DNA from: Prevotellaceae bacterium | GTDB lineage: Bacteria; Bacteroidota; Bacteroidia; Bacteroidales; UBA932 | Direction of reading: 5' to 3' | Assembly (NCBI GenBank): GCA_031278545.1 | Contig: JAITKF010000062.1 | Coordinates: forward strand, 4,994 to 68,993 | DNA: 64,000 nucleotides | Shown here: positions 76-33,794 of the stretch, in pieces | How positions within the stretch are numbered: position 1 is the first letter of the stretch | Layout: every line of letters begins with the position of its first letter | Made by a program: the position numbers and the translations under genes | The notes under the pieces: model-generated | The model's database searches: none | What the model was told of the DNA's origin: nothing | Seen by the model: the letters and a program-made list of their open reading frames with translations, nothing else

Positions 76-810
76 TTATATCTGAGCGTTTGTGCCGGTT
101 ACGGATTCGACCTTGTCGAGCAATGCCTGTCCGCGATAGCGCAGCAACAGTTGCGCTACGGCCAGCACATCCTTTTCGCAGTAGCGAATGATGCGGGGCA
201 AATCACCGTCAATATAATACACTGATGCCACCTGACTCCCGTCGATGTCGTCCTTCGGCGTATCGATATTCAGGACGGTGGTCAACAGTTCCAGCGAACA
301 GAAATGCTTGTAGTCGCCGAATTTCCATAGTTCCATCGTATCGAGAAACAGTGTTTCCCATGGTTTACGTCCGGCCACATCGAGCGCCTCCGGCAGGGGT
401 AAGCTGTTTATCAGCAAGCGTCGCGCGATGTAGGGAAAGTCAAATTCCTTGCCGTTGTGGGCACACAGTCGGACGTTTTTCTTTTTGGCAATGAACGCCG
501 CGAGCATTCTGCAGAAACCTTGCAGTAAGGCCTTCTCGTTGTGTCCGGCAAACGATTTCAAACGTAACGTTGGCTGTCCGTTATGCCGGTAGATAAACCC
601 GGCCGAGAGGCAAATGATGCGCCCAAACTCAGCCCAAATACCGGCGCGTTCATATACGTCCTCCGGCCGTTGCTCCTCCGTACGAAAATACGCCGACTTC
701 TTTTCCCACAATTTTTTCATCGCCTCCGGCACATCCGCATAGGAAGCGTATTGCGGAACGGTTTCCACATCAATAAATAGAATATGTTCAAAATTCAAAT
801 CCATATACAT
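76..810 (-). CDS. Predicted 3'-5' exonuclease, RNase H-like fold (PolB-exonuclease-like family)
   Basis: 244-aa ORF with ATG start. It has an N-terminal ILFIDVETV acidic motif, then HNGKEFDFPY and a C-terminal YCEKDV motif, which is the pattern of DEDD-type exonuclease domains. Assigned by eye only. Confidence 0.65.
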   Translation of the reverse strand: MYMDLNFEHILFIDVETVPQYASYADVPEAMKKLWEKKSAYFRTEEQRPEDVYERAGIWAEFGRIICLSAGFIYRHNGQPTLRLKSFAGHNEKALLQGFCRMLAAFIAKKKNVRLCAHNGKEFDFPYIARRLLINSLPLPEALDVAGRKPWETLFLDTMELWKFGDYKHFCSLELLTTVLNIDTPKDDIDGSQVASVYYIDGDLPRIIRYCEKDVLAVAQLLLRYRGQALLDKVESVTGTNAQI

Positions 811-869
811 TTATGTTAAGCGTTTGCTTTACATCTAAAGTTCGAAATCAGTTATCCAATATCCAAAAT

Positions 870-2126
870 CTAATGGCCAATGGCTACTACGGGGCTTAAT
901 CGTGAGGCCATCCATGCGGGAATAATGCCCGACAGGATGCCGACGACCGCCGAAATTAGGATACCACGTAAAATATTAATCAGGGTCAGGGCGATGGCAA
1001 AATCGAAGGCGTGAGTAACCAGCGTAGTGGCGGCAAACACCAGCAGTAACCCCAGCAGTCCGCCTGCCACCGTCAGCAGCATCGCCTCGAAAAGAAATTG
1101 CGTAAGGATAAAATAGTTTTTTGCTCCCAGCGATTTTTGAATACCGATAATGGGCGTACGTTCCTTGACCGACACAAACATGATGTTGGCCACGCCGAAC
1201 CCGCCAATCAGAATGGAAAGGCCGCCGATAATCCATCCGGCGAGGTTCAGGGTGTTTAATATCGGGTTAAGTTCACGGGAGATGACGCTCATTTCATTCA
1301 GTGCGAAATTGTCTTTTTGCGACGGGCCAAGACGTCGCAATGCACGCATCATCACGCGGAGTTCATCGTGCAGGTCGTCCATGCCTACGCCCGGTTTGGC
1401 TTTGACCAGAATGTCCTGATTACCGCGGCGCATATCGGCAAATTTGCCCGCATAGTTGAGAGGTATTACCACGGTATTATCGTAATTCATGGCAAACATG
1501 TTGCCCTGTTTTTTGAACAGTCCGATGACTCGTGTTTTACGTCCGGCGACGCTAAATACACGTCCGACCGGATAATCGTCGCCAAACAGTTCGTCGGCCA
1601 GCGTCCGTCCGATAATCGCTACATTGACGCCACCGTTGATTTCCATCGGCGAAAAGTAACGTCCCTCCTCAATCTCGACGGTTGCCATTTTTTTCCAATC
1701 GTAAGTAATGCCATATATGATGACCCGCGAGGTGGTGTTGGTTTTATATTTCAACTGCCGCTGGAACGGATGGATAAAAGCCACCTCTTCGGCATTCCGG
1801 AGATTGTTTTGCAGATAGGTAAATTCTTCGTACTTTGCGCGCGGTCGTTGGCGGTATTCCCACCATTGTTCTTCGCTGATTTTTCCCCACGGCCATTTCT
1901 GGATATATATCACATTGCTACCAAGCGATTCGATGCCCTCGCGGATATTATCTTCTAGGGCATTGACCATCGTAAAGACCGAAATAATGGAAAAAATCCC
2001 AATCGTTACGCCCAGTAATGAGAGGAATGTCCGCAGTTTATTGGCCTTCACCGAGCCATAGGCAAACGAAAAACTTTCACCCAGAAGCTTGATTAATACA
2101 TACGTATTTCGTAATTTTCGTCTCAT
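870..2126 (-). CDS. ABC transporter permease, FtsX/MacB type
   Basis: 418-aa ORF with an N-terminal TM helix after KANKLRTFLSLLGV, a large periplasmic domain and a C-terminal FtsX-like 3-TM bundle. The ATG overlaps the rpe stop (ATGA). Confidence 0.85.
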   Translation of the reverse strand: MRRKLRNTYVLIKLLGESFSFAYGSVKANKLRTFLSLLGVTIGIFSIISVFTMVNALEDNIREGIESLGSNVIYIQKWPWGKISEEQWWEYRQRPRAKYEEFTYLQNNLRNAEEVAFIHPFQRQLKYKTNTTSRVIIYGITYDWKKMATVEIEEGRYFSPMEINGGVNVAIIGRTLADELFGDDYPVGRVFSVAGRKTRVIGLFKKQGNMFAMNYDNTVVIPLNYAGKFADMRRGNQDILVKAKPGVGMDDLHDELRVMMRALRRLGPSQKDNFALNEMSVISRELNPILNTLNLAGWIIGGLSILIGGFGVANIMFVSVKERTPIIGIQKSLGAKNYFILTQFLFEAMLLTVAGGLLGLLLVFAATTLVTHAFDFAIALTLINILRGILISAVVGILSGIIPAWMASRLSPVVAIGH

Positions 2127-2809
2127 CGGATTGTAGATTTTAGATTTTGGATATTGCTACTGCCTGCTGCCACTAATTCTGCCATAGTCTGCATGGGGTC
2201 GGTTGCGTTGAAGACGGCATTGCCGGCAACCAGAATATCTGCGCCGGCGGCGTAGAGTTGCGCGGCGTTGCGGGGGCTTATTCCTCCGTCGACTTCAATC
2301 AGTGTAGCTGCTTTTTCGCGGGTGATTAGCGTCTTCAATTCGGCGATTCTGTGCAGCGAATGCTCGATAAACGCCTGTCCGCCGAATCCCGGGTTGACGG
2401 ACATGATCAGTATAAAATCGGCGGTATGGAGACTGTCGACCAGCAACGATACCGGTGTATGCGGATTGAGGGCTACGCCGGCTTTCATGCCTGCCGAACG
2501 GATTTGTTGCAACGTCCGGTTCAAATGTACACAGGCCTCGTAGTGTACCGACAGCCAAGCTATGCCGACGGCGCGAAATGACTCAATATAACGGTCGGGT
2601 TCGACAATCATCAGATGTGCATCAAGAGGTTTCAGGGCTTTGGCGGCAATTGCCTTAATCACTGGGAAACCATACGAAATATTGGGAACAAACCGTCCGT
2701 CCATCACATCTAAATGGAACAGGTCGGCCGCTCCGGCATTCACCATTTCAACTTCTTCGTTCAGCCGGCCGAAATCCGCCGACAACATAGATATCGATAG
2801 CATTTTCAT
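2123..2809 (-). CDS. rpe: Ribulose-phosphate 3-epimerase
   Basis: 228 aa. It carries the HLDVMDGRFVPN, MSVNPGFGGQ and VDGG motifs typical of Rpe. Confidence 0.93.
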   Translation of the reverse strand: MKMLSISMLSADFGRLNEEVEMVNAGAADLFHLDVMDGRFVPNISYGFPVIKAIAAKALKPLDAHLMIVEPDRYIESFRAVGIAWLSVHYEACVHLNRTLQQIRSAGMKAGVALNPHTPVSLLVDSLHTADFILIMSVNPGFGGQAFIEHSLHRIAELKTLITREKAATLIEVDGGISPRNAAQLYAAGADILVAGNAVFNATDPMQTMAELVAAGSSNIQNLKSTIR

Positions 2810-2833
2810 TGCAATATAGATGTATTGTTTTTA

Positions 2834-2841
2834 CAAAGATA
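2834..2841 (-). promoter_or_regulatory. Bacteroidetes -7 promoter box (TATCTTTG on minus strand) for the rpe-ftsX operon
   Basis: The plus strand reads CAAAGATA, 25 nt upstream of the rpe ATG at 2809. Confidence 0.6.
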
Positions 2842-2869
2842 CATTTTTTTCAGGATGAGTGATGAAATC

Positions 2870-3280
2870 CTATTCTAAAAAGAAACGATATGCATTCCGG
2901 CCTATCCAGTACAGGATAATCACTGCCAGCATGCCCCATATAAAAGCGCTCCCCGACAGTATCCGGTGTATTGTCGGAAAACGTTTTTTTCCGTCGAATG
3001 AATTTAGGTACAGGAGCAACGCAATCAGCGCTAAGGCGGGAATAAGAATCGGATTGTAGAGGAATGCTTCTTCCCATTCTCCGTGCAGTAAACTATGCAG
3101 GGCGCGCTGTGTACCGCATCCGGGGCATTGGAAACCGGTCAGTTTATAAAAAGGGCACGGTGGAAAAGGTATCTCTGCCGGATTGAATACATAAAACAAT
3201 CCGGCCCCGACGACCACGCCGATCGCTATCGCCAAGACTTTCCACCTATTTGGTTTGCTTGTCAAAAGCCCCGGTCGCAA
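2870..3280 (-). CDS. DUF2752-type small membrane protein
   Basis: 136 aa with a CPFYKLTGFQCPGCGTQRA cysteine motif followed by TM helices. The track start at 3280 is TTG, not ATG, so the true start is uncertain. Confidence 0.65.
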   Translation of the reverse strand: MRPGLLTSKPNRWKVLAIAIGVVVGAGLFYVFNPAEIPFPPCPFYKLTGFQCPGCGTQRALHSLLHGEWEEAFLYNPILIPALALIALLLYLNSFDGKKRFPTIHRILSGSAFIWGMLAVIILYWIGRNAYRFFLE

Positions 3281-3313
3281 CCGCCTTTTATCATTTGGTG
3301 GTACAACAGGCCA

Positions 3314-3730
3314 CTATTCAAAAAGCGGTAGCAGCGGTGAGCTGCTGGTGGCTGCCCCTATGATATAAATGAGATAGATAGTATAGGGAATATAAATGAT
3401 CAACGCTGTAACGAGCGACGCAATCGTAAAGTTTTTGGCATTGCGCGACGCTCTATATGCGGCGTCGATATTGCCGTTCATAAAGTATTTCTCTACCTGT
3501 GCGGCATATACAATCGCCGGGATGCCCAGCGGCAGGCAGCATAAGATAGTAACTACTATCGACTGCCACAGGTAGGTTGCCGGCATTTGGTCGTACGGCG
3601 GCGAGGGTTTCTTCGGTGTCGTGGCTGGCGCCGGCTGCGGCGCCGGCTCGGATGTCATTTCATATCCGCATTTCGTACAGAAACGCGCATTGTCGGGATT
3701 TGCTTCTCCACAAGTTGAGCAATATTTCAT
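3314..3730 (-). CDS. Zinc-ribbon plus CD225/dispanin (IFITM-like) membrane protein
   Basis: 138 aa. It has an N-terminal CSTCG..x..CTKCG zinc ribbon, a Pro-rich linker, and then the two-TM CD225-like segment WQSIVVTILCCLPLGIPAIVYAAQV. Confidence 0.7.
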   Translation of the reverse strand: MKYCSTCGEANPDNARFCTKCGYEMTSEPAPQPAPATTPKKPSPPYDQMPATYLWQSIVVTILCCLPLGIPAIVYAAQVEKYFMNGNIDAAYRASRNAKNFTIASLVTALIIYIPYTIYLIYIIGAATSSSPLLPLFE

Positions 3731-3756
3731 AATGATAAAAAATTAATATTAGTCTG

Positions 3757-3764
3757 CAAAGATA
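3757..3764 (-). promoter_or_regulatory. -7 promoter box (TATCTTTG on minus strand)
   Basis: The plus strand reads CAAAGATA, 27 nt upstream of the ATG at 3730. Confidence 0.55.
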
Positions 3765-3937
3765 GCAAAAAATATTTGAGATATTGGATTCGGGAAAACT
3801 TTTACTACACGTTGGAAAACCACTATTTCCTGTAACTTCCACAGGCAAGTCCCGCTGGGACGATACTCTATTAACCGTATGCTTTAGCTTACGGATACCA
3901 GCCTCCCCCGGCTTTGTCCGCAAGGGCAGGATTTTGA

Positions 3938-4192
3938 CATTCCCCTCTTCCTGGCTTTGCCTTTCAGGCGGACGTAGACGCCGGCGTGCGCACCTACATC
4001 GGCTGCATTACCTCCCTCGCTTTCCTCACCGGCTGTCCGGGAATCGTTCCCGAACAGCCGGCCATCAGCGGCACAAAAACAATTTACATTTTCGGCAACC
4101 CGCGAGGAGAGTACCCGGGCACATCCGGCTGCAACCAAAGCATCGCTACAGACAAGGGCTGGACGGTGGATACGTCATTTTGTCCTCCTTAA
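3938..4192 (+). pseudogene. Relic of a FISUMP-family surface-protein gene
   Basis: The frame translation PGFAFQADVDAGVRTYIGCITSLAFLTGCPGIVPEQPAI aligns by eye with PPFVVNGVRLAAGVATYSGCITSLTDTTGCPGLIPPSPEI of the 15186-17507 protein. IYIFGNPRGEY also resembles FYLYGNPAGSF. There is no credible start or signal peptide, and a stop lies immediately upstream. Confidence 0.35.
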
Positions 4193-4223
4193 GAATGAAG
4201 AAACACCTCAATCGAAAAAGTGG

Positions 4224-4289
4224 CACTTTCCAATGGTGTAGGAAAGTGTCATTGCCCCCCCGGTCAGACTTTCCAATGGGGTTGGGAAA
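4224..4289 (+). repeat. Twin hairpins sharing the 12-mer ACTTTCCAATGG
   Basis: CACTTTCC (4224-4231) pairs with GGAAAGTG (4241-4248). The second copy, TTTCC (4270-4274), pairs with GGAAA (4285-4289). The 12-mer repeats at 4225 and 4268. Confidence 0.5.
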
Positions 4290-4430
4290 CCCGTAAAAGC
4301 GCTAAAAAATAATATGGTTAATTTAAATGGTCTCCACACGGGCGGATGAAGGGGGCTCATACGTTCGGATAATCGGCATGGCCGAATTGACTGTCCACGG
4401 CAACGCTGCACGGCAATCCGCAACTTTTCG

Positions 4431-4438
4431 TATCTTTG
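4431..4438 (+). promoter_or_regulatory. -7 promoter box TATCTTTG for ileS
   Basis: Perfect TAnnTTTG match, 30 nt upstream of the ATG at 4468. Confidence 0.65.
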
Positions 4439-4467
4439 CACTCATTTTTTCACAAAAAGACAATCAC

Positions 4468-7400
4468 ATGAGTAAAAAATTTAAAGAATACAAACAATTA
4501 GATCTCGTGACCGTCAATCGGGACGTGCTGGCGCAATGGGATGCGGCCAAGACCTTTGAGCAATCGCTGGTAAAACGGCGCGGATGCCCGCCGTTTGTAT
4601 TTTTTGAGGGGCCGCCGTCGGCCAATGGCATGCCCGGCATCCACCATGTTATTTCACGCGCCATTAAGGATGTCTTCTGCCGCTACAAAACGCAAAAAGG
4701 CTTTCTGGTCGAACGCAAGGCCGGATGGGATACGCACGGCCTGCCGGTCGAACTGGCGGTGGAGAAAATGCTGCAAATTACAAAGGAAGACATCGGCTCG
4801 AAAATTTCGGTTGAAGACTATAACGCCGCCTGCCGTAAGGAAGTGATGAAATATACGAAGGAATGGGAAGCGCTGACACGGCAAATGGGTTATTGGGTCG
4901 ATATGCGGAACCCCTACGTTACCTGCGACAACCGTTATATCGAAACGCTCTGGTTCCTACTGAAACAAATCTACGAACAGGGATTGCTCTATAAGGGCTA
5001 CTCCATCCAGCCCTACTCGCCCGCAGCTGGCACCGGATTGAGTTCGCACGAATTGAACCAGCCCGGCTGCTATCGCAATGTGAAAGATACAACGTGCGTC
5101 GCACAGTTTAAAGTGATACACAACGAACCGTCGGCATTCCTCTTCGGAAATACTGCTACGGACGCCCTGTTTTTCCTTGCATGGACGACAACCCCGTGGA
5201 CGCTGCCTTCAAATACCGCGCTGGCCGTTGGAAAACAAATCCGCTATGTAGCGGTTGAAACCTTTAACCCCTACACCGCTGAACCGATTACAGTGCTGCT
5301 AGCGAAAGAACGCGCTGCCGCATTCTTTCCCGAAAAGAACGCCGGCGCGCCGATGAACTATCAGGTCGGCGACAAAACGCTGCCCTACCGCTTCGGCCAC
5401 GAGTACCTCGGCAGCGCGCTAGAAGGCCTCCGCTACGAACAGTTGCTGCCATACGCCCAGCCCGAAACCGGCGACGCCTTCCGTGTCGTATGCGGCGATT
5501 TTGTCAGCACCGAAGACGGCACAGGCATCGTACACGTAGCGCCTTCGTTTGGCGTCGACGACTTCCGCGTAGCGCGGGAAAACGGTATCGGAGCCCTCAC
5601 GCTGGTCAACAAACAGGGGCGCTTCATCGACGGCCTCGGTGACCTCAGCGGACGGTTCGTAAAAAACGACTACGACCCCGCCGCCAAACCCGACGACGAA
5701 CCGGTAGACGTCTATATCGCCATGAAATTGAAGAAAGCAGGACGCGCATTCAAAATCGAACGCTACGAACACAGCTATCCACACTGCTGGCGGACAGACA
5801 AACCGGTGCTATACTATCCGCTTGACGCATGGTTTATCCGAACCACCGCCGTCAAAGACTCGCTGATTTCCCTGAACAATACGATCCGTTGGAAGCCCGA
5901 AAGCGCCGGCGCAGGACGCTTCGGCAAATGGCTGGAAAACCTTCAGGACTGGAACCTCTCGCGCAGCCGTTACTGGGGAACGCCGCTACCCATCTGGCAT
6001 ACCGACGACGGAAACGAAGAACGATGCATCGGATCGGTCGGTGAACTGTTCGATGAAATCGAAAAAGCCGTAGCCGTAGGATTCATGCCCAAAAATCCAT
6101 GGAAGGAAAAGGGCTTTACACCGGAGGTATATACCAAAGACAATTACGACTGCATCGACCTGCACCGTCCATACGTAGACGACCTCATACTGGTCTCGCC
6201 GTCGGGTAAACCCATGCACCGCGAAGCGGATTTAATCGACGTATGGTTTGATTCGGGTGCCATGCCGTTTGCGCAAAACCACTACCCCTTTGAAACGGAC
6301 GTATTCAAAAGCGCCGACTTCATTGCCGAAGGCGTCGACCAGACACGCGGCTGGTTCTTCACCCTGCATACCATCGCAGCCATCGTCAAAGGCGAGGTCG
6401 CCTACCGTAGCGTGGTGGCCAACGGGCTGGTGCTCGACAGGGAAGGTAACAAAATGAGTAAACGCCTGGGCAATGCCGTAGACCCCTTCAAAATAATGAA
6501 CGCCTACGGCGCCGACGCCCTGCGCTGGTACCTGCTCACCAACGCGCAACCATGGGATAACCTGAAATTCGACGCCGCCGGCATAGACGAGGTACGCCGT
6601 AAATTCTTCGGCACGTTGTACAACACCTATTCGTTTTTTGCCCTCTATGCCAATGTCGACGGCTTCACGGGGCAGGACGAAGAAGTACCCGTAGCGCAAC
6701 GCCCCGAAATCGACCGCTGGATAATTTCCCTGCTGCATACCCTAATAAAAGAAACAGGCGACGCCTACGAAAATTATGACGTAACCCTGGCAGGACGCAT
6801 GATTCAGGACTTCGTGTGCGATCATCTAAGCAACTGGTACGTGCGCCTGAACCGCAAACGTTTTTGGGGCGGGCAGATGACCGACGACAAGCGGGCGGCC
6901 TACCAAACCCTATGCACCTGTCTGGAAACCGTCGCGCAATTAGCCGCGCCCATCGCCCCGTTTTTCATGGAACGGCTTTATACCGATCTCAACAACGTAA
7001 CGGCGCGCCATGCCGAACCGTCGGTTCACTGCACGGAATGGCCGCCCTTCAACCCCGCTTTAATCAACCCGAAACTGGAGCGGCAAATGGCGCTGGCGCA
7101 ACGCGCCTCATCAATGACGCTGGCCCTGCGACGGAAGGTCAATATCAAAGTGCGGCAACCGCTGACGAAAATGATGATACCCGTGCTTGACACCGCTATG
7201 CAGGAACAGTTGGAAGCTGTGCAGCAGCTGGTACTCAATGAAGTTAATGTAAAAGAAATGCACTTCCTGACCGACACAACCGGCGTTATCGTAAAGAAAA
7301 TAAAACCGAAATTCAACTCGCTAGGCAAGAAATATGGCAACCGGATGAAGGACATTGCCGCGGCCATCAATGATTTCAACCAACAGCAGATAGGCGAGCT

Positions 7401-7815
7401 GGAAAAGACCGGCTATTACATGCTGGCGCTAGCGTCGGGTAAAATCGAACTGCAACGGGACGACGTGGAAATTACGTCGGAAGACTTACCGGGCTGGCTG
7501 GTGGCTACAGAAGGCGCGCTCACGGTCGCGCTCGACGTTACCGTCACCGACATGCTCCGCCGTGAAGGACTAGCGCGCGAACTAATCAACCGCATACAGA
7601 ACATCCGCAAAGAAAGCGGCTTCGACATCGTCGATAAAATCCGCATCCGCCTCAACAGGCAACCCGAAATAGCCGCTACCGTAGCCGCCTTTGGCGACCT
7701 GATACGCTCGCAGACATTGGCCGTCGCCATCGACTTGTGCGACTCCCTCCCTTCCTCCGCCACCGTCGTGGAAATAGATGAAATGAAGGTGGAGATAGAG
7801 GTGGAGAAGCAGTAA
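4468..7815 (+). CDS. ileS: Isoleucine--tRNA ligase
   Basis: Class I aaRS with a PSANGMPGIHHV (HIGH-like) motif and a KMSKRLGN (KMSKS) motif, about 1115 aa. I trimmed the start to MSKKFKEYK, downstream of the -7 box; the track ORF begins at 4327. Confidence 0.95.
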   Translation: MSKKFKEYKQLDLVTVNRDVLAQWDAAKTFEQSLVKRRGCPPFVFFEGPPSANGMPGIHHVISRAIKDVFCRYKTQKGFLVERKAGWDTHGLPVELAVEKMLQITKEDIGSKISVEDYNAACRKEVMKYTKEWEALTRQMGYWVDMRNPYVTCDNRYIETLWFLLKQIYEQGLLYKGYSIQPYSPAAGTGLSSHELNQPGCYRNVKDTTCVAQFKVIHNEPSAFLFGNTATDALFFLAWTTTPWTLPSNTALAVGKQIRYVAVETFNPYTAEPITVLLAKERAAAFFPEKNAGAPMNYQVGDKTLPYRFGHEYLGSALEGLRYEQLLPYAQPETGDAFRVVCGDFVSTEDGTGIVHVAPSFGVDDFRVARENGIGALTLVNKQGRFIDGLGDLSGRFVKNDYDPAAKPDDEPVDVYIAMKLKKAGRAFKIERYEHSYPHCWRTDKPVLYYPLDAWFIRTTAVKDSLISLNNTIRWKPESAGAGRFGKWLENLQDWNLSRSRYWGTPLPIWHTDDGNEERCIGSVGELFDEIEKAVAVGFMPKNPWKEKGFTPEVYTKDNYDCIDLHRPYVDDLILVSPSGKPMHREADLIDVWFDSGAMPFAQNHYPFETDVFKSADFIAEGVDQTRGWFFTLHTIAAIVKGEVAYRSVVANGLVLDREGNKMSKRLGNAVDPFKIMNAYGADALRWYLLTNAQPWDNLKFDAAGIDEVRRKFFGTLYNTYSFFALYANVDGFTGQDEEVPVAQRPEIDRWIISLLHTLIKETGDAYENYDVTLAGRMIQDFVCDHLSNWYVRLNRKRFWGGQMTDDKRAAYQTLCTCLETVAQLAAPIAPFFMERLYTDLNNVTARHAEPSVHCTEWPPFNPALINPKLERQMALAQRASSMTLALRRKVNIKVRQPLTKMMIPVLDTAMQEQLEAVQQLVLNEVNVKEMHFLTDTTGVIVKKIKPKFNSLGKKYGNRMKDIAAAINDFNQQQIGELEKTGYYMLALASGKIELQRDDVEITSEDLPGWLVATEGALTVALDVTVTDMLRREGLARELINRIQNIRKESGFDIVDKIRIRLNRQPEIAATVAAFGDLIRSQTLAVAIDLCDSLPSSATVVEIDEMKVEIEVEKQ

Positions 7816-7864
7816 AGCCTGCTTGCGGCCTGGTTTCATTCGCTGCCGCTTCAATGTTCCATTG

Positions 7865-9004
7865 TTATATGTAGCTATGTATCCCGCCCAGAAGGAAACT
7901 TACGCCGAAGAAGGTTATGGCTACGGCGGCAAAGGCGATGGCGCAGTAGAGATGAAATCGGCAGGGCGAGCGGAAATAAGCGAGACTTTGCCGGTGGAAC
8001 GGCACGGCATAGACGAGCAGGGTGATGAGCGCCCATGTCTCCTTTGCATCCCATCCCCAGTAGCGTCCCCATGAAATATTTGCCCACACTGCGCCGATAA
8101 AGATGCCTGCCGCCAGCAAGAATACTGCCGGATAGAGCAAGCGCATGTTCCATCGGTAAAACTGCAGTCGTCGTTTGCGAGAGCATAATCCGGCGATAGC
8201 CGTAACGGTTATAAAAAGAAACAGGGCATACGATGCCATAATGACCGACACGTGGGCAGCCAGCATGGGAGAACGCAATACGGGCGTCATAGGATTGAGC
8301 TGCGAAATATATATCCACAGGCCGGCGACCGGAAGGACTGTCCACAGCATACCCCGCCACCCTATGCGCCGCCACAGCAGCCATAGCATAGCCGCCGCCA
8401 GCATCCCGTAACCGGCATAGGTCAGGCCGATACCCCACGGGTCGTGGTTGACGAGCAGCGTACTACCCATTTCGTCGGGGTCGTAGTCCATTTGGTACAG
8501 GCGGTAACCGTGCCGGGTATATATTTTGTTCATCGACACGCGGACGATTTCGTCGTCTATTTTCAAGAAACTGATAAAGTCGGCGGGAGCGTCGGTGTCC
8601 GGGTGGTATTCGATGTCGAAAAGCACGAGTTTGACGTTGAATGGCAGGGAGCGTGTGGTGGCGTCCTTGTCCGGGGTGTAAGCGCGGACGGTTTCGCCTT
8701 GCCGCAGGTGAATATAGCCGCGTTTGGCTGTCGCAAAGGTAACCAAGGCGCCGCAGAGAATGACCGCCAGCGCCGCGTGCAGCAGAAACGCCGGTTTATT
8801 ACGGTAGAGCGCCATGCCTATAATATAGGAGCATGCCACCGCCGCCAGCGTTCCCCACAATGCCACAAACCACCATGCACTGTATATACTTGCCAATGCC
8901 ACCTCGCGTCCGGCTATCTTTTCCACTGCAGTAGCTGCTGCCAGCGTAAGCAGGATAACGGCCAGCATACTGAAAACGCCATATTTATTATATTTTACAA
9001 ACAT
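7865..9004 (-). CDS. Cytochrome c biogenesis (system II) CcsA/ResC-family protein with a ResB-like N-terminal extension
   Basis: It has the WWD heme-handling motif WGRYWGWDAKETWAL and a C-terminal GGIHSY histidine. The N-terminal half has TM helices plus a short segment (VNHDPW, YRLYQMDYD) reminiscent of ResB/CcsB. I chose the ATG at 9004; the track ORF extends to 9064. Confidence 0.7.
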   Translation of the reverse strand: MFVKYNKYGVFSMLAVILLTLAAATAVEKIAGREVALASIYSAWWFVALWGTLAAVACSYIIGMALYRNKPAFLLHAALAVILCGALVTFATAKRGYIHLRQGETVRAYTPDKDATTRSLPFNVKLVLFDIEYHPDTDAPADFISFLKIDDEIVRVSMNKIYTRHGYRLYQMDYDPDEMGSTLLVNHDPWGIGLTYAGYGMLAAAMLWLLWRRIGWRGMLWTVLPVAGLWIYISQLNPMTPVLRSPMLAAHVSVIMASYALFLFITVTAIAGLCSRKRRLQFYRWNMRLLYPAVFLLAAGIFIGAVWANISWGRYWGWDAKETWALITLLVYAVPFHRQSLAYFRSPCRFHLYCAIAFAAVAITFFGVSFLLGGIHSYI

Positions 9005-15185: not shown

Positions 15186-17507
15186 TTACATACTCCGTAC
15201 ACAACGCACATAGCCGGAGCTTTTCCCATCTTCTGATGAGATACTAATACAATCACCATGTGAGTCGTACATGTATAAGACCGGAGAGATACTCACTACT
15301 CGCTGCCCGGCCTTACGTGTTCCCAAGCAGTCGCTCACCACATACGCTGTGTGTTCAGCACTACCAACAAACAAACAGTTGGAGTTTGAGTCATGAAACT
15401 CTGTTTCTCCTGTGGGGACAAACGCTTTCGTCAGGTACTGCGCCCAGGCGTCGATTGTGGATTCAAACTCGGATTGATCAGGCAGCCGCCAGCCTGCCGG
15501 GCACAGCGAGTTGGAAGAGGTAGCCAGCACATCTTTCCAATACTCTTTCCCTGTGGCGTCGTGATCATCGCACTTTGAAACGGCTATGACGGCCGAATGC
15601 GAGGCGTAGGCTAAGTAATCATCCATCGTCCAGAAATTGTTCGTCGACAGCATCGCGATACGGTATATTGTATTGTCGCGCGAGTCCTTTATCCACGCTT
15701 CCCAGTTCTGTGCCCCGCTGCTTCGTTTCTGGCAGGGGTGCGTAGCATTTTGGTATAAATCGGCGCCGGTGTAGGGGCACGACTCGACGGTGAGGGAATA
15801 CTCTCCTGCCGCGCGCTTCCATGTGTCGGTATCGCAGGCGTTGTCGCGCACTTCGCGGTAGTAGGTATAGGTGCCGGAGGTTGCCAGTTCGCTTGCTGTA
15901 AATATATAGCTGGCGGTGTTTGTGGTGAACGTCGCCGCCGGGTTCTCGCGTACCCACCGGTAGGTGTAGGCGCCCGATGCGCCGGACGCGGGCGTTCCTG
16001 CCGCGATGGTTGCGGTGGTTGCGGTATTGCCTGCGGTGGCTGTGTCGCTGCCGCTGATGGCGCCGGCGTCGAGTGCGGTATAAAGTGTCACTTCTTGCTG
16101 GTTGCTTTCGGACGTGCAGTGCGAGGTTTCGTCGAGAACGAATATGTAGTACTTGCCTGCTGCCGTTACGTTGAAGTATAATGTGCCTCCTGTGCCGTCC
16201 TGCATGCCGCCGACGGGGGAGTGCCCGCCGTCCAGCAGTTGATAGGTGTAGCCGCCGAGCCCTGTACAGCTTATCGCGGTGTTTGGGTGGCAGTAGGTGG
16301 CCGCTGCCGGCAGCGCCGGAACCGGCGGCAGCGGCCAGCCTACGCAGACGACCGACAGGCTGTCGGTGCATCCCGAGGCGTTGATGGCTTTTACGTATAT
16401 TGTAACGCTGCCGCTGTCGGGCATGGTAAACGTGTAGTTGTTGGAGGCCGTGTAGTTGCAGGAGAGGTTTTCAAACTCGCATTCGGCTTCGGAGGGGTCG
16501 CCATTCCCGTTGTGATAGGGATTATGGATGCATTCGGAGCAGGAGTGCGTAAAGCAGTATGATTCCCCGCCGGCGACTATGACCGTGACTTCGCTGCCGG
16601 CGCATACATTCGTTGGCGCGGAGGTAACCGACAGGGTGGGGGAGGGGAGTACGGTTACCGTGGTGTTGGCTGTTTTGATGCAGCCGCCGGCATTGCGTAC
16701 CGATACGTTGCAGGAGGTATCCTGCTGGGGCGCTATGCGTGTGGTGGCCGAGGTGGTGGCGGTTATCCACGATGCGCCGCCGTCGAAGCTATACGATGAT
16801 GCGCCGGTGGCTGTGGCGGTGAGCGTAAGGCTGTCGCCGGCGCAGATGGTCGATATCGAGGCGGTGAAGGAGGTGATTTCCGGCGACGGGGGGATGAGTC
16901 CCGGGCAGCCTGTCGTGTCGGTCAGGGAGGTGATGCAGCCGCTGTAGGTGGCGACGCCGGCGGCGAGCCGCACGCCGTTGACTACGAATGGCGGCGAGCC
17001 GTGCAGGTCATAATAGCCGTTGTTGTCCGTCGCGTTGGGCGGGTAGTCGGAGGCGTAGGTGCACCAGTTGAAGCGTGTGTTGGAGGGTACTCCGGTGAGG
17101 CCGACGGTAATGGTTGCACTGAATGAGCCTGCCGGATTCCCGTAGAGGTAGAATCCGCGTGTGTTCGACGGTACGGTGGCGATGGTTCCTTCACTGCCCG
17201 ACGCGAGGGCGGGGGCGTTGAGTGTGGCGGCTGTCCACGCGCCGTAGGCGCCATTGGCGTGTATTGGTTGGTAGTCGATGAAGAGCCATACGCTGTCTAA
17301 GTGTTGGCCGGAGGGCGCGGTGTCCCAGTAGACCCGGAAGGTTACTTTGGGGGGTGTTGCGATGTAGTCGGCGCCTATTTGCGCGACGCGTACGACGGAC
17401 TCCTGTCCGCGGCTCACGTGGCTGAGGGCACAGGCGAGGAGGAGGAGGACGAGGGATAGGAGGTGTTTATGGTATGTGGCAGGAGTTGGCACGGTTGTAA
17501 TCAACAT
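15186..17507 (-). CDS. Secreted surface protein with Cys-containing Ig-like repeats and a C-terminal FISUMP (Fibrobacter succinogenes major paralogous) domain
   Basis: 773 aa with a signal peptide and repeated CAGD/CAGSE beta-sandwich-like modules. The C-terminal segment DSRDNTIYRIAML..FWTMDDYL..CPAGWRLPDQSEFE matches the FISUMP pattern. Confidence 0.75.
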   Translation of the reverse strand: MLITTVPTPATYHKHLLSLVLLLLACALSHVSRGQESVVRVAQIGADYIATPPKVTFRVYWDTAPSGQHLDSVWLFIDYQPIHANGAYGAWTAATLNAPALASGSEGTIATVPSNTRGFYLYGNPAGSFSATITVGLTGVPSNTRFNWCTYASDYPPNATDNNGYYDLHGSPPFVVNGVRLAAGVATYSGCITSLTDTTGCPGLIPPSPEITSFTASISTICAGDSLTLTATATGASSYSFDGGASWITATTSATTRIAPQQDTSCNVSVRNAGGCIKTANTTVTVLPSPTLSVTSAPTNVCAGSEVTVIVAGGESYCFTHSCSECIHNPYHNGNGDPSEAECEFENLSCNYTASNNYTFTMPDSGSVTIYVKAINASGCTDSLSVVCVGWPLPPVPALPAAATYCHPNTAISCTGLGGYTYQLLDGGHSPVGGMQDGTGGTLYFNVTAAGKYYIFVLDETSHCTSESNQQEVTLYTALDAGAISGSDTATAGNTATTATIAAGTPASGASGAYTYRWVRENPAATFTTNTASYIFTASELATSGTYTYYREVRDNACDTDTWKRAAGEYSLTVESCPYTGADLYQNATHPCQKRSSGAQNWEAWIKDSRDNTIYRIAMLSTNNFWTMDDYLAYASHSAVIAVSKCDDHDATGKEYWKDVLATSSNSLCPAGWRLPDQSEFESTIDAWAQYLTKAFVPTGETEFHDSNSNCLFVGSAEHTAYVVSDCLGTRKAGQRVVSISPVLYMYDSHGDCISISSEDGKSSGYVRCVRSM

Positions 17508-17514
17508 ATGGGGT

Positions 17515-18459
17515 CTATCGGGCGATGTTAAACGTCGCGGTTTTTTGTCCTTTGTAGGCGCCTTTGCCGTGGAGGGTAACTTCTGCGGTGCCTACTTCGA
17601 CGTTATTTTTGTAGGTTACCGAGAAATCTTTACCCAGCGTCAGTTCTACGGTCGGGCTGTTGTCTTCGCGGTAGTATGCTTTGGGCACTACGGTGATGGG
17701 TTTGCCTGAGTAGGGTTGTGTTTCGATGGGTTCGATGACGGTGTGGTCGCTTTGGCCGAGGTCTTTTTTGGCGGGGCGGTGGGCGTGGTCGTTATAGTAG
17801 GTAACGTTTTGGTTGAATTTTTCTACGAACGCGTCGGCGGCGCCATTGTTCAGGATGTTGTAGGCGTCGATTTTATCGGTGATTATCCGGTATTTGGTTT
17901 CTACTTCGCGGCGTATGTCGGGCACGTGTCCATGCGGGCGTTGGCTCCATTCTTCGTTTCGGGCGAGGTAGAGTTGTTCAAAACGTGTTTGCACGTTGGC
18001 CATTTCTGTGACCCATTCGGTGATGCCGATGGTGGCGACGTCGGCGGCGTATGCGTCTTGCAGGTCGGCGATGAGTATTCCTACGGCGGCGGATTCTTCT
18101 TCGTAGCTTTTTCTTTCGATCTCGCCGTTGAATGCTTTCATGCGTACTTCGAGGCGGTGGCCGGCTTGCTGGACGGCGCTATTGAAGTGGTGCAGGGCGA
18201 CGTTGATAGCGCTGTTGATGCCCACGATGCAGCGGTCGCGCCGCAGGTCGGTGTCGGCGATTTCTTCGGTATAGGCGCTGCCCCGCACGGCGTCTATCAG
18301 CGTCTTTTCGGTATCTATCAGTTGGTAGAATACCGGCAGGTCGTCGGCCAGCAGGGTGGCGATTACGGTGTCGCCGTTAATTAATACGCGTACTGTTACT
18401 AAGTACTGGTAATGCGCTTCGTTGCGCAGGTAGCTAAAACGGATTTTTAGAATCTTCAT
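17515..18459 (-). CDS. Uncharacterised protein: helical N-terminal domain plus C-terminal Ig-like (MBG-like) domain, no signal peptide (paralog A)
   Basis: 314 aa with ATG start, 8 nt upstream of the FISUMP gene. It is clearly homologous to 32504-33484 (LRNEAHYQY/LRANEHSQY, ALHHF, KAF, QRPHG/QKPHG, KDLG..IEPI, GKP[IV]TVVPK.YYR, [TS][VI]TY[KR]NN..G.AE[VL]T[LI].GKG.Y.G.K..TF.I). Confidence 0.75.
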   Translation of the reverse strand: MKILKIRFSYLRNEAHYQYLVTVRVLINGDTVIATLLADDLPVFYQLIDTEKTLIDAVRGSAYTEEIADTDLRRDRCIVGINSAINVALHHFNSAVQQAGHRLEVRMKAFNGEIERKSYEEESAAVGILIADLQDAYAADVATIGITEWVTEMANVQTRFEQLYLARNEEWSQRPHGHVPDIRREVETKYRIITDKIDAYNILNNGAADAFVEKFNQNVTYYNDHAHRPAKKDLGQSDHTVIEPIETQPYSGKPITVVPKAYYREDNSPTVELTLGKDFSVTYKNNVEVGTAEVTLHGKGAYKGQKTATFNIAR

Positions 18460-18554
18460 GTTTTTTTATATTTTGGTTAATTGTTTATACAGGCCATGAG
18501 TGCGGAGGGGCGTTGTGATAATATCGATGGTAGCCGCCCGAACAGTTTTTTGGG

Positions 18555-18759
18555 GGAATCCGACGCGTCGGGAAACGTCCTGCGCGTTTCGGGAAGGAAT
18601 CCGACGTGTCGGATTTTGTCCTGCGTGTTTCGGGAAGGAATCCGACGCGTCGGATTTTGTCCTGCGCTGTTCGGGAAGGAATCCGACGTGTCGGGAAGCG
18701 TCCTGCGCTGTTCGGGAAGGAATCCGACGCGTCGGGAGACGTCCTGCGCTGTTCGGGAC
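18555..18759. repeat. Tandem array, 5 x 41 bp, each unit bearing the palindrome TCCGACG(C/T)GTCGG
   Basis: Unit starts fall at 18555, 18596, 18637, 18678 and 18719, an exact 41-bp period. The array is GC-rich within AT-rich intergenic DNA. Confidence 0.95.
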
Positions 18760-18858
18760 GACGTCCCCACGTAGTGGGATAGCTGCCGGAGCGGGAATTT
18801 TCGTCATATTTTATGGTAAATAGAGGTATCATGTATTCGTCGTTTAAAAAACCAGCTG

Positions 18859-18866
18859 CAAAGATA
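18859..18866 (-). promoter_or_regulatory. -7 promoter box (TATCTTTG on minus strand) upstream of the 41-bp array and paralog A
   Basis: The plus strand reads CAAAGATA. I see no other CAAAnnTA between here and the ATG at 18459. Confidence 0.5.
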
Positions 18867-24547: not shown

Positions 24548-24634
24548 AGAGGACAGAAGAAGGAAGGAACGACAAACGACGAAGGAGGAAAGGTGAAAGG
24601 AGAAAAGCGAAGGAGGAAAGGAGAAGGAAGAATG
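24546..24634 (+). repeat. Polypurine (GA-rich) tract with duplicated CGAAGGAGGAAAGG
   Basis: By my count there are about 7 pyrimidines in about 84 nt. The 14-mer repeats at 24580-24593 and 24608-24621. Confidence 0.85.
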
Positions 24635-31091: not shown

Positions 31092-31186
31092 AACCTCTGT
31101 GTACCTCTGCGCCTCCCGGTGTAACACCCCCCAACTCCACCCAACCCCCCAACGTTACACCCAGAGACGCAGAGAGACGCAGAGTG
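31092..31186 (+). repeat. Long imperfect hairpin with a C-rich apical loop
   Basis: GGTGTAAC (31118-31125) pairs with GTTACACC (31154-31161). The outer ACCTCTG x2 pairs with CGCAGAG x2. The loop is ACCCCCCAACTCCACCCAACCCCCCAAC. Confidence 0.6.
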
Positions 31187-31230
31187 GCGCCAAAAAACGC
31201 CAAGCGCCTCATACATCCCATTATTTTTTT

Positions 31231-31238
31231 TACCTTTG
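31231..31238 (+). promoter_or_regulatory. -7 promoter box TACCTTTG for manC
   Basis: TAnnTTTG match, 20 nt upstream of the ATG at 31258. Confidence 0.65.
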
Positions 31239-31257
31239 CCAAAAATTAACCCCCACG

Positions 31258-32352
31258 ATGACTTCCAACCAATACTGCATTATCATGGCCGGCGGCGCAG
31301 GAAGCCGTTTCTGGCCAATGAGCCGCGACTCGCGACCTAAACAATTCTTAGACATCTTAGGCGACGGGAAATCATTCCTGCAAGAAACATTTGCCCGCTT
31401 TGCACACATCGTACCCCCAGAAAATATCCTGATAGTAACGGGTAACGCCTACGTCGACATCGTCCGCCAACAACTGCCCGCCGTCGACCCCGCGCAAATA
31501 CTGGCCGAACCGTTGCGGCGCAACACCGCCCCTTGCATTGCCTACGCCGCCTACCGGATCCTCGCCAAAAACCCACATGCCACGATGGTCGTTACACCGG
31601 CCGACCACTACATCGCCAACGAACAAGCATTCCTGCAAGTGATACAGAACGCCCTCAACTTTGCGGCAAACAACGATTCACTCATCACACTCGGAATCCA
31701 ACCCACACGCCCCGAAATCAACTACGGATACATCCAGTTCAACAAATCCGAACAACACGATGTCAGCAAACAGAAAGTATACCGCGTCAAAACATTCACC
31801 GAAAAACCCAACGCCGAGCTGGCGCAAATATTCCTCAATAGCGGCGAGTTCCTCTGGAACTCGGGCATCTTCATCTGGCACATTAAAACCATCTGCCGCG
31901 CACTGAAGACATATCTCCCCGACATCGCCGCACTATTCGAGAAAGGAGCCCCGGTATACCATACCCCCGACGAGCCCGCCTTCGTGGCCGGCGCCTACGC
32001 CGAATGCCGCAATATCTCCATCGACTACGGCGTCATGGAAAAAGCCGACAATACATATTGCTTCATCGGGCGCTTCGGATGGTCGGACTTGGGCACGTGG
32101 TACTCCCTCTATTCACACAAACGGAAAGACCCCTGCGGTAACGTCGTCGACGCCCCGGAAACGATGCTCTACGACGTCGCCGACACCGTCGTTTTCTCCG
32201 GAAATAAACAAAAACTGATAGTCCTGCGCGGACTGGAAAACTTCCTGGTCATCGACACCGACGACGTCCTGCTCGTGTGCCCCAACAACGACAACGACGT
32301 AAAAGAAATCATCAAAGACATCCCGCTAAAAAAAGGGAAAAAATACATGTAA
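31258..32352 (+). CDS. manC: Mannose-1-phosphate guanylyltransferase
   Basis: 364 aa with IMAGGAGSRFWP nucleotidyltransferase motifs and DYGVMEK. The start was trimmed from the track ORF at 31099 to MTSNQYCIIMAGG. Confidence 0.82.
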   Translation: MTSNQYCIIMAGGAGSRFWPMSRDSRPKQFLDILGDGKSFLQETFARFAHIVPPENILIVTGNAYVDIVRQQLPAVDPAQILAEPLRRNTAPCIAYAAYRILAKNPHATMVVTPADHYIANEQAFLQVIQNALNFAANNDSLITLGIQPTRPEINYGYIQFNKSEQHDVSKQKVYRVKTFTEKPNAELAQIFLNSGEFLWNSGIFIWHIKTICRALKTYLPDIAALFEKGAPVYHTPDEPAFVAGAYAECRNISIDYGVMEKADNTYCFIGRFGWSDLGTWYSLYSHKRKDPCGNVVDAPETMLYDVADTVVFSGNKQKLIVLRGLENFLVIDTDDVLLVCPNNDNDVKEIIKDIPLKKGKKYM

Positions 32353-32503: not shown

Positions 32504-33484
32504 CTATCCCTCGACGGCGATGCTCGCTTCGATACTAAACGTCATCCTCTTTTTCCCCGTATACCCGCCCTTGCCGCGGATGGTAAGCTCGGCCATACCC
32601 GGACGGATATTATTCCGGTAAGTTATCGAAAAATCATGCCCCAGCGACAGCTCAACGCCCGCATCGGCGCCGGTATCAGCGTCGCGGTAATACACCTTCG
32701 GCACGACCGTCACAGGCTTGCCCGTGGCCATTTGCGGCGGGATGGGTTCGATACACGTGCATCCCCCCTTACCCAAGTCTTTCCCAGCATGGCGGTGCAG
32801 CAACTCCCTGAATTTGTCGGCTACGACATTGAGGCGCACGATAAACTCGTCGAACGCGCCGGGCGTGTCGCCGACGATGGAGGCCGCCACAATGCGGTCG
32901 ATCATCCGGTCGTAGACGGTTTCGACGCTGCGCCGCGCCACACGTAGCCGGCCATGCGGTTTTTGCGCCGCTTCGGAAAGGCGCTGGTGGTACAACTCCA
33001 CGAACGCCGTTTTAGCAGCGGCCAGCTCGTCGACCCACGGCATTAGCCCGATAAGCGTCGCCTTCGCGGCGTACTCAGGGCTGCGGAGTGCATCCATCCA
33101 TATCTCGATAGCAGAGAGTTCCGCCATATAATCTTTCCGGCGTATGATGCCGAATGCTTTGAAGCGGTAATAAAGATCCTTCGCCGCGTCTTCCATGGCG
33201 GGGTCGAAATGGTGCAGCGCCGATGTCAACAACGCGCTCATGCCTGTCAGGCAACGCTCGATACGCCTCTCGGCCGTCATGATATACTTCGTATAGCTGC
33301 TTTTACGTATTTTACCCAGCAGGGCGAACTCCTCATCGAGCCGTTCGATGAAATCAGGATACAGGTCGGCCACAACCTCTTTTACCTGCGGCCATGCATC
33401 AAGCAGCTCTTGAAAATACGTGAAGTATTGACTGTGTTCATTAGCACGGAGCGAATGAAAATAGATCAGTTTAATTTTTTCCAT
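32504..33484 (-). CDS. Uncharacterised protein, paralog B of 17515-18459 (helical domain plus C-terminal Ig-like domain, no signal peptide)
   Basis: 326 aa with ATG start. The shared motif blocks are listed under paralog A. Confidence 0.75.
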   Translation of the reverse strand: MEKIKLIYFHSLRANEHSQYFTYFQELLDAWPQVKEVVADLYPDFIERLDEEFALLGKIRKSSYTKYIMTAERRIERCLTGMSALLTSALHHFDPAMEDAAKDLYYRFKAFGIIRRKDYMAELSAIEIWMDALRSPEYAAKATLIGLMPWVDELAAAKTAFVELYHQRLSEAAQKPHGRLRVARRSVETVYDRMIDRIVAASIVGDTPGAFDEFIVRLNVVADKFRELLHRHAGKDLGKGGCTCIEPIPPQMATGKPVTVVPKVYYRDADTGADAGVELSLGHDFSITYRNNIRPGMAELTIRGKGGYTGKKRMTFSIEASIAVEG

Positions 33485-33547
33485 CTTTTTTAAAATTATA
33501 TAATATTTTATTTCTATTTAAATCTTTCAATATGTCATCAAAATTTT

Positions 33548-33711
33548 GGGACGGCATGTCGCTGCGAGCGACGGTTCGTCCCAAAGTTGGGACGGCGTGT
33601 CGCTGTGAGCGACGGTTCGTCCCAAAGTTGGGACGGCGTGTCGCTGCGAGCGACGGTTCGTCCCAAAATTGGGACGGCGTGTCGCTGCGAGCGACGGCTC
33701 GTCCCAACTTT
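33548..33711. repeat. Tandem array, 4 x 41 bp, each unit a 35-nt two-stem hairpin GGGACG-GCGT-GTCGCT-GCG-AGCGAC-GGTT-CGTCCC
   Basis: Unit starts fall at 33548, 33589, 33630 and 33671, an exact 41-bp period. Only four single-base differences separate the units (33556, 33606, 33668, 33698), and none lies in a stem. Confidence 0.95.
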
Positions 33712-33786: not shown

Positions 33787-33794
33787 CAAAGGTA
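33787..33794 (-). promoter_or_regulatory. -7 promoter box (TACCTTTG on minus strand) upstream of the second 41-bp array and paralog B
   Basis: The plus strand reads CAAAGGTA. Only a weak AAATTTTG lies between the array and the ATG at 33484. Confidence 0.5.

Follow-up and report, generated by a model that had tools for sequence, protein, structure and literature searches.

The DUF6261 loci of the window

This work concerns two tandem repeat arrays found in a 64,000-nucleotide stretch of DNA from a Prevotellaceae bacterium (contig JAITKF010000062.1; this whole stretch is hereafter called the window), each of which lies ahead of a gene encoding a protein of the DUF6261 family (PF19775). Both loci are read from the minus strand. 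The first array (array A) precedes paralog A, whose gene is followed by that of a 773-aa protein, and the second (array B) precedes paralog B, which appears to be monocistronic because the next gene is convergent according to the map of open reading frames (ORFs) and the NCBIfam assignment of positions 31099-32352. The two paralogs are 41% identical (tblastn), and their arrays share the same period and are unrelated in sequence. According to Tandem Repeats Finder (TRF), they are the only two arrays of 41-bp period in the 64-kb window. The features of both loci are collected in Table 1.

Table 1. Features of the two DUF6261 loci, with positions counted from the first nucleotide of the window
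Feature	Position	Strand	Description	Basis
Array A	18555..18758	-	5.0 units of 41 bp, head-to-tail	TRF, direct repeats, sequence, palindrome enrichment
Array A unit (gene orientation)			(AA)TCCGACG(C/T)GTCGGATT + CCTTCCCGAA(C)AGCGCAGGAC + short variable block	
GGGACGACGTCCC palindrome	18760..18772	-	promoter-proximal edge of array A; degenerate extra half-unit	sequence, hairpin map
Candidate Bacteroidetes -7 box TATCTTTG	18859..18866	-	94 bp upstream of array A	sequence, TAnnTTTG scan
Spacer, array A to ATG	18460..18554	-	95 nt, AT-rich near the start	
DUF6261 paralog A	17515..18459	-	314 aa, ATG at 18459	Pfam PF19775, E=2.4e-34
Paralog A architecture			N-terminal helical bundle and C-terminal immunoglobulin-like (Ig-like) domain	AlphaFold2, pLDDT 90
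773-aa protein downstream of paralog A	15186..17507	-	co-directional	sub-threshold FISUMP (TIGR02145) match
Array B	33546..33707	-	4.0 units of 41 bp, 95% matches	TRF, sequence, pattern search, hairpin map
Array B unit			almost wholly palindromic, GGGACG..GTCGCT..AGCGAC..CGTCCC; dyad centre each 20.5 bp	
Candidate -7 box TACCTTTG	33787..33794	-	83 bp upstream of array B	sequence, scan
DUF6261 paralog B	32504..33484	-	326 aa, starts 62 bp from array B	Pfam, E=1.2e-28

The original prediction, made from the letters of the sequence, described array A as five 41-bp units, each bearing the palindrome TCCGACG(C/T)GTCGG, and both parts of this description were borne out. TRF reported a period of 41, 5.0 copies, 86% matches and a score of 280, and a direct-repeat finder returned the identical 41-bp register. 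The palindrome occurs once in every unit and, when no mismatch is allowed, nowhere else in the 64 kb; with up to one mismatch, 10 strand-matches were obtained in the window, nine of them in array A and one a chance match at 20807, against a mean of 0.40 in shuffled sequences, none of which (0 of 100) reached 10. The finer anatomy that had been read from the sequence is likewise present, namely the extension of the palindrome to AATCC...GGATT in two units, the GTCCTGCG..TTCGGGAA block, which is conserved, the variable stretches that part the conserved ones, the terminal GGGACGACGTCCC, and the minus-strand -7 box and start codon that enclose the array. A second array, also announced in the original prediction, was placed by TRF as listed in Table 1; its nested palindrome was found by pattern search in array B alone within the window, with 0 matches expected. 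A coding repeat is ruled out for array A, whose period of 41 cannot be divided by 3 and which no real ORF spans. The source is a metagenome-assembled genome (MAG) built from short reads, so that the exact copy number of array A could be an assembly estimate, and a Logan assembly of the paralog A gene breaks within the array.

Tandem arrays across the DUF6261 family

A DUF6261 profile search of contigs taken from one genome per species yielded 62 loci, and TRF was run on every one. In about 50 of them, an array with a period of 41-43 bp ends 33-322 bp, mostly 33-130 bp, ahead of the start codon; contig ends truncate most of the others. The exact protein is on record from a MAG of the Prevotellaceae, its relatives come mostly from termite-gut MAGs, and DUF6261 genes are present in several copies per genome in termite-gut Bacteroidales. 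The search for arrays upstream of homologues, proposed in the original prediction as a check, has thus found comparable arrays ahead of almost all of them, and the array, initially tied to a single operon of paralog A and a FISUMP gene, is instead a feature of the whole DUF6261 family, paralog B included. That orthologous loci would lack such an array, as was anticipated for a neutral minisatellite, is clearly contradicted by these counts. In about 370 kb of flanking DNA, no array of 41-43-bp period was found beside any other gene.

Several loci deserve separate mention. Three (L015, L028, L035) have no upstream DNA on their contigs, and two (L023, L027) have only about 155 bp of it, with a periodicity at lag 41/42 visible at the contig edge. 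L018 carries a degenerate array of two units with a weak lag-41/42 signal, and the distant homologue L055 has two 21-bp units only. In L016 and L051, the array has been moved 0.8-1.6 kb upstream by other repeats; in the former (2094-3914), the array of 41 bp x 7.4 is parted from DUF6261 by tandem blocks of 207 bp x 2.0 and 165 bp x 3.0, which look like an insertion into the leader. In L036, no array was found. A partial homologue, 27% identical, located on a phage-labelled contig likewise has none.

The association reaches beyond the Bacteroidota. Streptococcus caballi and S. orisratti carry a bona fide DUF6261 gene (E=1.3e-36) between parE and parC, with 41-bp arrays ahead of it, and further array-bearing loci comprise L063 (41 x 7.2), L178, the S. 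mutans locus L186 (41 x 2.6) and L187 (41 x 2.1), the last of them with an unrelated unit. Nearly every DUF6261 gene in gut Bacteroidales and Streptococcus is linked with a tandem dyad array. In the streptococci (L186, L059, L060, L187), the gene occupies a variable parE-parC island that looks like an accessory or toxin-type element. In S. mutans L186 (GCA_046035255.1), the island (414-8750) encodes a 446-aa protein, DUF6261, a Fic protein, a RelA_SpoT-domain protein and a 188-aa protein, and in L187 a Fic gene follows DUF6261 too.

A large number of short-read contigs end within the array or shortly ahead of it (L005, L023, L027, L029, L032, L042, L062, L185), as is expected if the repeats break assemblies. 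DUF6261 genes are thus often located at contig edges, and copy numbers taken from such assemblies may be underestimates. Other repeats were also observed in these regions. Simple-sequence runs lie directly upstream of some arrays: GCAGCACC/GCAGCGAA octamers in L001 (3672-3793), (GA)n and (GACA)n in L024 and L026, and (CA)29 in L063 (7536-7593). The neighbourhood of DUF6261 loci in termite-gut Bacteroidales also contains hairpin repeats that resemble repetitive extragenic palindromes (REPs), have a period of 45-58 bp and bear no relation to the 41-42-bp arrays, for instance GTAGGGGCAA..TTGCCC and GAGACGCGAnGCATCGCGTCTC (L002 4965-5054, L021 3375-3504, L012 7167-7352, L020 2449-2591, L030 4972-5068).

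Unit length and dyad symmetry

Of 66 arrays, 38 have a period of 42 bp, 27 one of 41 bp and a single array one of 43 bp; the mean is 41.6 bp, equal to 4 x 10.4 bp. The copy number varies from 2.1 to 12.8 with a median of 4.8. Every unit contains a palindrome with arms of 5-12 bp or more. Many arrays, among them array B, L007, L010, L013, L019, L020 and L038, show an alternation of two different palindromes with centres 20.5-21 bp apart, and among the 30 arrays with two perfect palindromes, this centre spacing was found in 19, as compared with 17% of shuffles.

The sequence of the unit differs from clade to clade. In the Prevotellaceae/Tannerella clade, it comprises TTTCC-N8-10-GGAAA, C(C/G)TTCCCG and a variable stretch with GAC at its end; units of the Paludibacter clade have GGATGAA twice in direct and once in inverted orientation, together with AACGAG; the Streptococcus units differ from both. 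GGATGAA in the Paludibacter clade and TTCC/GGAA in the main clade are short words that appear in direct as well as inverted orientation inside one unit, as half-sites would. In L105, both half-units read TTCCCGA-N4-CGGGAA, which suggests that a palindrome of about 21 bp may be the basic building block. Some motifs are strand-specific: of 11 main-clade arrays scored, two were tied, and the motif lay on the gene's strand in seven of the nine with a dominant strand. Similarly, the word AACGA(G/A) lies on the gene's strand in 8 of 10 arrays, both exceptions being outside the Paludibacter clade. This strand bias may reflect shared ancestry only.

Comparison of close relatives indicates how such arrays evolve. 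The proteins of L048 and L052 are 78-80% identical, and their array sequences cannot be recognised as related. In L046 and L052, at about 80% protein identity, the array sequence has been retained, with identities of 84% (array), 79.5% (coding sequence), 59% (third codon positions) and 62% (upstream flank). Read together, these comparisons indicate arrays that are constrained, occasionally replaced wholesale and always restored to a like length and symmetry. The confinement of the period to 41-42 bp despite randomised sequence implies stabilising selection on length, and, since the unit sequence turns over while period and dyad symmetry stay, the arrays do not behave as neutral minisatellites. 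The pattern argues for selection on unit length and dyad symmetry and not on primary sequence.

Promoter position and level of action

Promoters were called solely as matches to TAnnTTTG, the consensus of the Bacteroidetes -7 box. Among 52 loci, 19 have an exact match no more than 200 bp upstream of the array. The matches concentrate at 62-115 bp from the first unit, where they are found at both window loci (-94 and -83) and at about a dozen others, most of the Paludibacter clade being included; in that clade, the box survives although the surrounding flank has diverged. No TAnnTTTG was found in the 52 array-to-ATG spacers (4.8 kb in total), which agrees with the earlier observation that no further -7 box lies between array A and its ATG. 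Because -7 boxes lie upstream and never in the spacer, the array is probably part of the 5' leader, and a position in the transcribed leader is the most likely one on these consensus matches. The spacers are short, plain AT-rich sequences, and a terminator after the array was considered and rejected, as they are terminator-free; in the spacer of array A (18460..18554), neither a -7 box nor a terminator was found.

A leader position leaves two levels at which the array could act. Both window arrays fold far better than shuffled sequences on the sense strand, with z = -3.9 for A and -11 for B, and the same holds for the other strand of array A; such folding is expected of any palindrome array. 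Pairs inside the palindromes comprise 1832 Watson-Crick pairs, 20 G:T, 34 A:C and 62 transversion mismatches, so the excess of G-U wobble pairs that a selected RNA helix would leave was not found. The unpaired centre is at most 2 nt in 50 of 96 palindromes, which means that symmetry continues through the would-be RNA loop, and of the two possible transcripts, the antisense one would be the more stable in 50 of 65 arrays (p=3e-6). The mean period corresponds to four turns of B-DNA. In L055, two palindromes 21 bp apart lie just upstream of a -7 box, where only DNA can act. As judged from the sequences, the palindrome statistics favour a DNA-level reading. The earlier proposal of an array transcribed as leader RNA thus stands as regards position, with -7 boxes upstream and none in the spacers, and is less well supported as regards action at the RNA level, where the statistics lean to DNA.

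Arrays without a DUF6261 gene

Metagenomes were scanned with the pattern TTTCC-N8-10-GGAAACCTTCCCG, a loose pattern that returned mostly chance matches and at least 10 true arrays; the sample is biased by this pattern and does not allow the share of solo arrays to be estimated. Among the matches listed, L178 alone has DUF6261 downstream. L088, L095, L097, L130, L140 and L171 contain like arrays with neither DUF6261 nor a remnant of it within 2.5 kb, and L123 appears to be the L171 array in reverse complement. In L146, the array and its 3' flank are common with L178 to about 20 bp before the ATG, and the DUF6261 gene is absent. Solo arrays sit after genes, between convergent genes or, in one case, 271 bp upstream of rho: in L140, a Bacteroidota metagenome contig, the 41-bp array (7-140) precedes the rho gene (412-2115). 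The link from gene to array is almost obligatory, and that from array to gene is not exclusive.

The location of the L140 array, together with the asymmetry between sense and antisense folding, raised the idea of a Rho-loading (rut) site. It was rejected, as the C/G ratio of the linkers is 1.14, C exceeds G in just 39 of 65 arrays and the arrays fold strongly. The bias of their sense strands towards C and A is slight and falls short of the level of rut sites.

The DUF6261 protein and its gene neighbours

The AlphaFold2 model of paralog A (pLDDT 90) comprises a helical bundle of 225 residues followed by an Ig-like beta domain. The latter (residues 232-314) is a very common repeat of surface proteins, with 28,947 representatives at E<=0.001 and up to 67 copies in proteins of at most 7646 aa. 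DUF6261 proteins of Paludibacter and Streptococcus are without this C-terminal domain, and an exhaustive DUF6261 profile search was dominated by the repeat and thus uninformative on the N-terminal domain. The family had no NCBIfam match, and a PDB sequence search gave no match at E<0.06. A phage or defence origin was considered and rejected: no PHROG or PADLOC match was obtained, and PLSDB (72,556 plasmids) contained no match either. Three phage-labelled contigs, their label unverified, have weak partial DUF6261 matches.

A conserved operon partner was also rejected. The genes downstream of DUF6261 vary, encoding leucine-rich repeat proteins, an adhesin, DnaG, SusC, a histidine kinase or Fic, or are absent; accordingly, the FISUMP gene that had been regarded as the operon partner of paralog A is not conserved in this role, and the match of the 773-aa protein to FISUMP (40.2 bits) falls under the NCBIfam cut-off of 41.65. 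Other neighbours in the window are ordinary housekeeping genes, such as those for alpha-2-macroglobulin, PBP1C, MiaA, Fe-ADH, mannose-1-phosphate guanylyltransferase and methylmalonyl-CoA mutase.

Two further repeats of the window lie apart from the DUF6261 loci. At 57962-58038, a direct repeat of 21 bp x 3.7 (TAACAGGGAAAAGAAGTACCT) precedes, by about 105-190 bp, a box TATCTTTG (58143-58150) and the ATG at 58155, which opens a gene for an ABC-transporter auxiliary/ABC-2 membrane protein; this repeat could be an upstream regulator-binding array. At 24580-24632, a purine-rich repeat of 14 bp x 3.8 (CGAAGGAGGAAAGG) lies at the junction of the alpha-2-macroglobulin and PBP1C genes.

Possible mechanisms

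The module can be described as a putative promoter, a tandem dyad array, a short AT-rich spacer and the DUF6261 gene, in this order, with 41-42-bp units that carry one or two palindromes each and, if two, with centres about 21 bp apart. As the array lies downstream of the candidate -7 box, RNA polymerase would have to cross it to express DUF6261. The explanation that we favour, tentatively and at less than even confidence, is that the array acts at the DNA level and gates transcription from the upstream promoter. Within the initially transcribed region, its sites of dyad symmetry, phased at four helical turns per unit, would either be bound by a host factor that is dimeric or oligomeric or themselves adopt a structure, and the array would serve as a roadblock or a silencing switch for transcription into DUF6261. 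Hairpins in the leader RNA would then be incidental or add a secondary layer, as is the case for CIRCE. Any such binding factor is unlikely to be DUF6261.

Several observations weigh against gating by such an array. Among the loci compared, no gene for a DNA-binding protein travels with the module, and neighbours are not conserved. Paralogs of one genome bear different palindromes, which would require a sequence-specific factor for each array unless shape or shared short half-sites are read. The equal dyad spacing of 20.5-21 bp is mathematically the same as a near-palindromic whole unit and is therefore not independent proof of helical phasing. An exact -7 box was found in just 19 of the 52 loci, and the promoters are candidates by consensus match. 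Furthermore, perfect palindromes without G-U pairs could stem from young, recently homogenised arrays rather than from selection at the DNA level. DUF6261 itself offers little as the missing factor: Foldseek matched its model to nothing in PDB or BFVD at E<0.001, no helix-turn-helix or ribbon-helix-helix fold is recognisable in the predicted structure, the family is acidic (median pI 5.9), and the proteins of unrelated arrays are set apart by only about 20 conservative substitutions, which are scattered and among which no specificity cluster stands out, so the protein is unlikely to read its own array. DUF6261 was consequently rejected as a recognisable DNA or RNA binder, with no fold match, an acidic composition and no co-variation with the array.

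Action in the RNA is a possible alternative, to which we give somewhat less credence. The array would be transcribed as a string of 5' untranslated hairpins, one or two per 41-42 nt, with roles in mRNA stability, processing (e.g., by RNase III) or premature termination, or as a target of a structure-specific RNA-binding protein. This agrees with the location between -7 box and ATG, with structure kept as sequence changes and with the strong sense-strand folding of both window arrays; it needs no locus-specific trans factor, which fits the wholesale replacement of arrays, and each of the four solo arrays whose upstream gene is known points the same way as that gene, like an element of a 3' untranslated region. 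Nevertheless, G-U pairs show no excess over A-C, transversions are the commonest mismatch, palindromy reaches into the would-be loop, and sense RNA is systematically less stable than antisense; moreover, hairpins have no obvious need for a length of 41-42 nt across two phyla, and no Rfam family matches. It is rather unlikely that the arrays are extragenic repeats of the Bacteroidota, self-propagating or of structural use, akin to REPs and bacterial interspersed mosaic elements (BIMEs), with which DUF6261 travels or beside which it inserts without specific regulation. The six solo arrays without DUF6261 within 2.5 kb, some of them between convergent genes, the presence in L146 of the array and 3' flank of L178 and not of the gene, and the stand-alone nature of DUF6261, with many genomic contexts and several copies per genome, are consistent with such repeats. 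However, the units are head-to-tail and locus-specific, unlike REP/BIME, whose identical units alternate in orientation (PMC3733652), and within the 64 kb they are confined to their own array; seen from the gene, the association is near-complete and cross-phylum, the position relative to promoter and ATG is constant, and the flanking genes examined include no associated transposase.

Autoregulation, in which DUF6261 would bind its own array, as DNA or RNA, as an operator or assembly platform, might be suspected from its being the only gene always linked with the array and from the distinct array sequence of each paralog. The protein features given above, the lack of a cluster of specificity-changing residues between proteins about 80% identical that have unrelated arrays, and the existence of solo arrays make it improbable. 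A centromere-like partition site is very improbable: the architecture is nearly that of sopC of plasmid F (PMC3177203), but the arrays are chromosomal and present in several copies per genome, no ParA/ParB genes lie nearby, and the plasmid search returned no DUF6261. Finally, tandem repeats easily arise by slippage, and short-read assemblies often break at these arrays, as a neutral minisatellite or an assembly artefact would lead one to expect. This view is effectively refuted by the shared period of 66 independent arrays despite complete sequence turnover, by the occurrence of arrays in isolate Streptococcus genomes and in MAG contigs of about 1.5 Mb (one record tagged 'ont'), and by the L046/L052 array, which is more conserved than synonymous sites.

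A broader idea, which we hold to be doubtful, is that array and DUF6261 form a two-part module, extending from Bacteroidales to Streptococcus, with an element measured by length and not by sequence. If so, a molecular ruler would read or build four-turn dyad repeats, in the form of an oligomeric factor or machine, or else a ribonucleoprotein assembly would be templated by the gene's own leader; solo arrays would then be relics or extra targets.

Significance

The array provides a first functional handle on PF19775, whose literature amounts to one table entry. Conservation of length and symmetry without conservation of sequence across two phyla is an unusual pattern, which neither the existing Rfam models nor the repeat families described so far capture. 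The element can be tested directly, as the module is carried by S. mutans strains, which are genetically tractable. For annotators and MAG builders, it is also relevant that the arrays break short-read assemblies right before DUF6261.

Comparison with known systems

The original prediction knew of no described cis-element with this architecture, and the Rfam and literature searches agree. Rfam 15 at gathering score gave 0 matches in the window and six loci, bar one tRNA, and at E<=10 nothing relevant, with sub-threshold hairpin noise only, so a known RNA family was rejected; no paper was found on 41/42-bp arrays or on the function of DUF6261. CRISPR arrays were rejected, as the units abut, whole units repeat and no cas gene occurs among the window neighbour genes scanned, and so were replication iterons (17-22-bp repeats), given the period of 41-42 bp, the dyad symmetry and the absence of a rep gene among the neighbours scanned. 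The arrays thus apparently represent an undescribed, family-wide and cross-phylum cis element defined by length and symmetry.

Partial resemblances to several known systems are nevertheless instructive. CIRCE, the operator of HrcA, is a single conserved 9-N9-9 inverted repeat that is bound by a known repressor and can function in the DNA, as an operator, and also as an element of the mRNA. Like CIRCE, the DUF6261 arrays place perfect inverted repeats between promoter and start codon; in contrast, they consist of 2-13 tandem units with at most two palindromes each and variable sequence. ARG boxes, bound by ArgR, are 18-bp palindromes whose centres lie 21 bp apart on one helix face. They share phased palindromes and the 21-bp centre spacing with the arrays, and differ in forming one pair of conserved sequence at the promoter instead of long, non-conserved arrays downstream of it.

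Within the Bacteroidales, the BrickBuilt element of Porphyromonas gingivalis is a 23-nt unit repeated inside a MITE (miniature inverted-repeat transposable element) with leader and tail inverted repeats, found 19 times in one genome (PMC4596501). It is likewise a spacer-less intergenic tandem repeat with proposed transcriptional effects (PMC4596501), but has no link to a gene family, and the DUF6261 arrays have units of 41-42 bp with no common leader or tail seen. REPs are high-copy, near-identical units paired head-to-head or tail-to-tail, head-to-tail dimers being rare (PMC3733652). The GTAG- and CGTC-tagged REP/BIME elements are similar in being short, GC-rich intergenic palindromes that are sometimes clustered and transcribed, and the solo copies after genes or between convergent genes add to the likeness. 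The DUF6261 arrays, on the other hand, are strictly head-to-tail, have a fixed period of 41-42 bp, consist of units that in the 64-kb window occur solely in their own array, and belong with one gene family, and no RAYT (IS200/IS605-type) transposase was found among the flanking genes examined.

In sopC of plasmid F, a 43-bp direct repeat occurs 12 times, and SopB binds the 16-bp inverted repeat in each copy (PMC3177203). Both sopC and the DUF6261 arrays are composed of head-to-tail repeats of about four helical turns (43 vs. 41-42 bp) without spacers and in variable copy number, and both hold an inverted repeat of roughly 16-20 bp within each unit. No ParA/ParB was found near the arrays, whose neighbours are the alpha-2-macroglobulin, PBP1C, MiaA, Fe-ADH, mannose-1-phosphate guanylyltransferase and other genes. 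While sopC resides on a plasmid beside sopAB and is read by a binder of the ParB family, the DUF6261 arrays are chromosomal, multi-copy and locus-specific, and lie in the probable leader of an unrelated gene.

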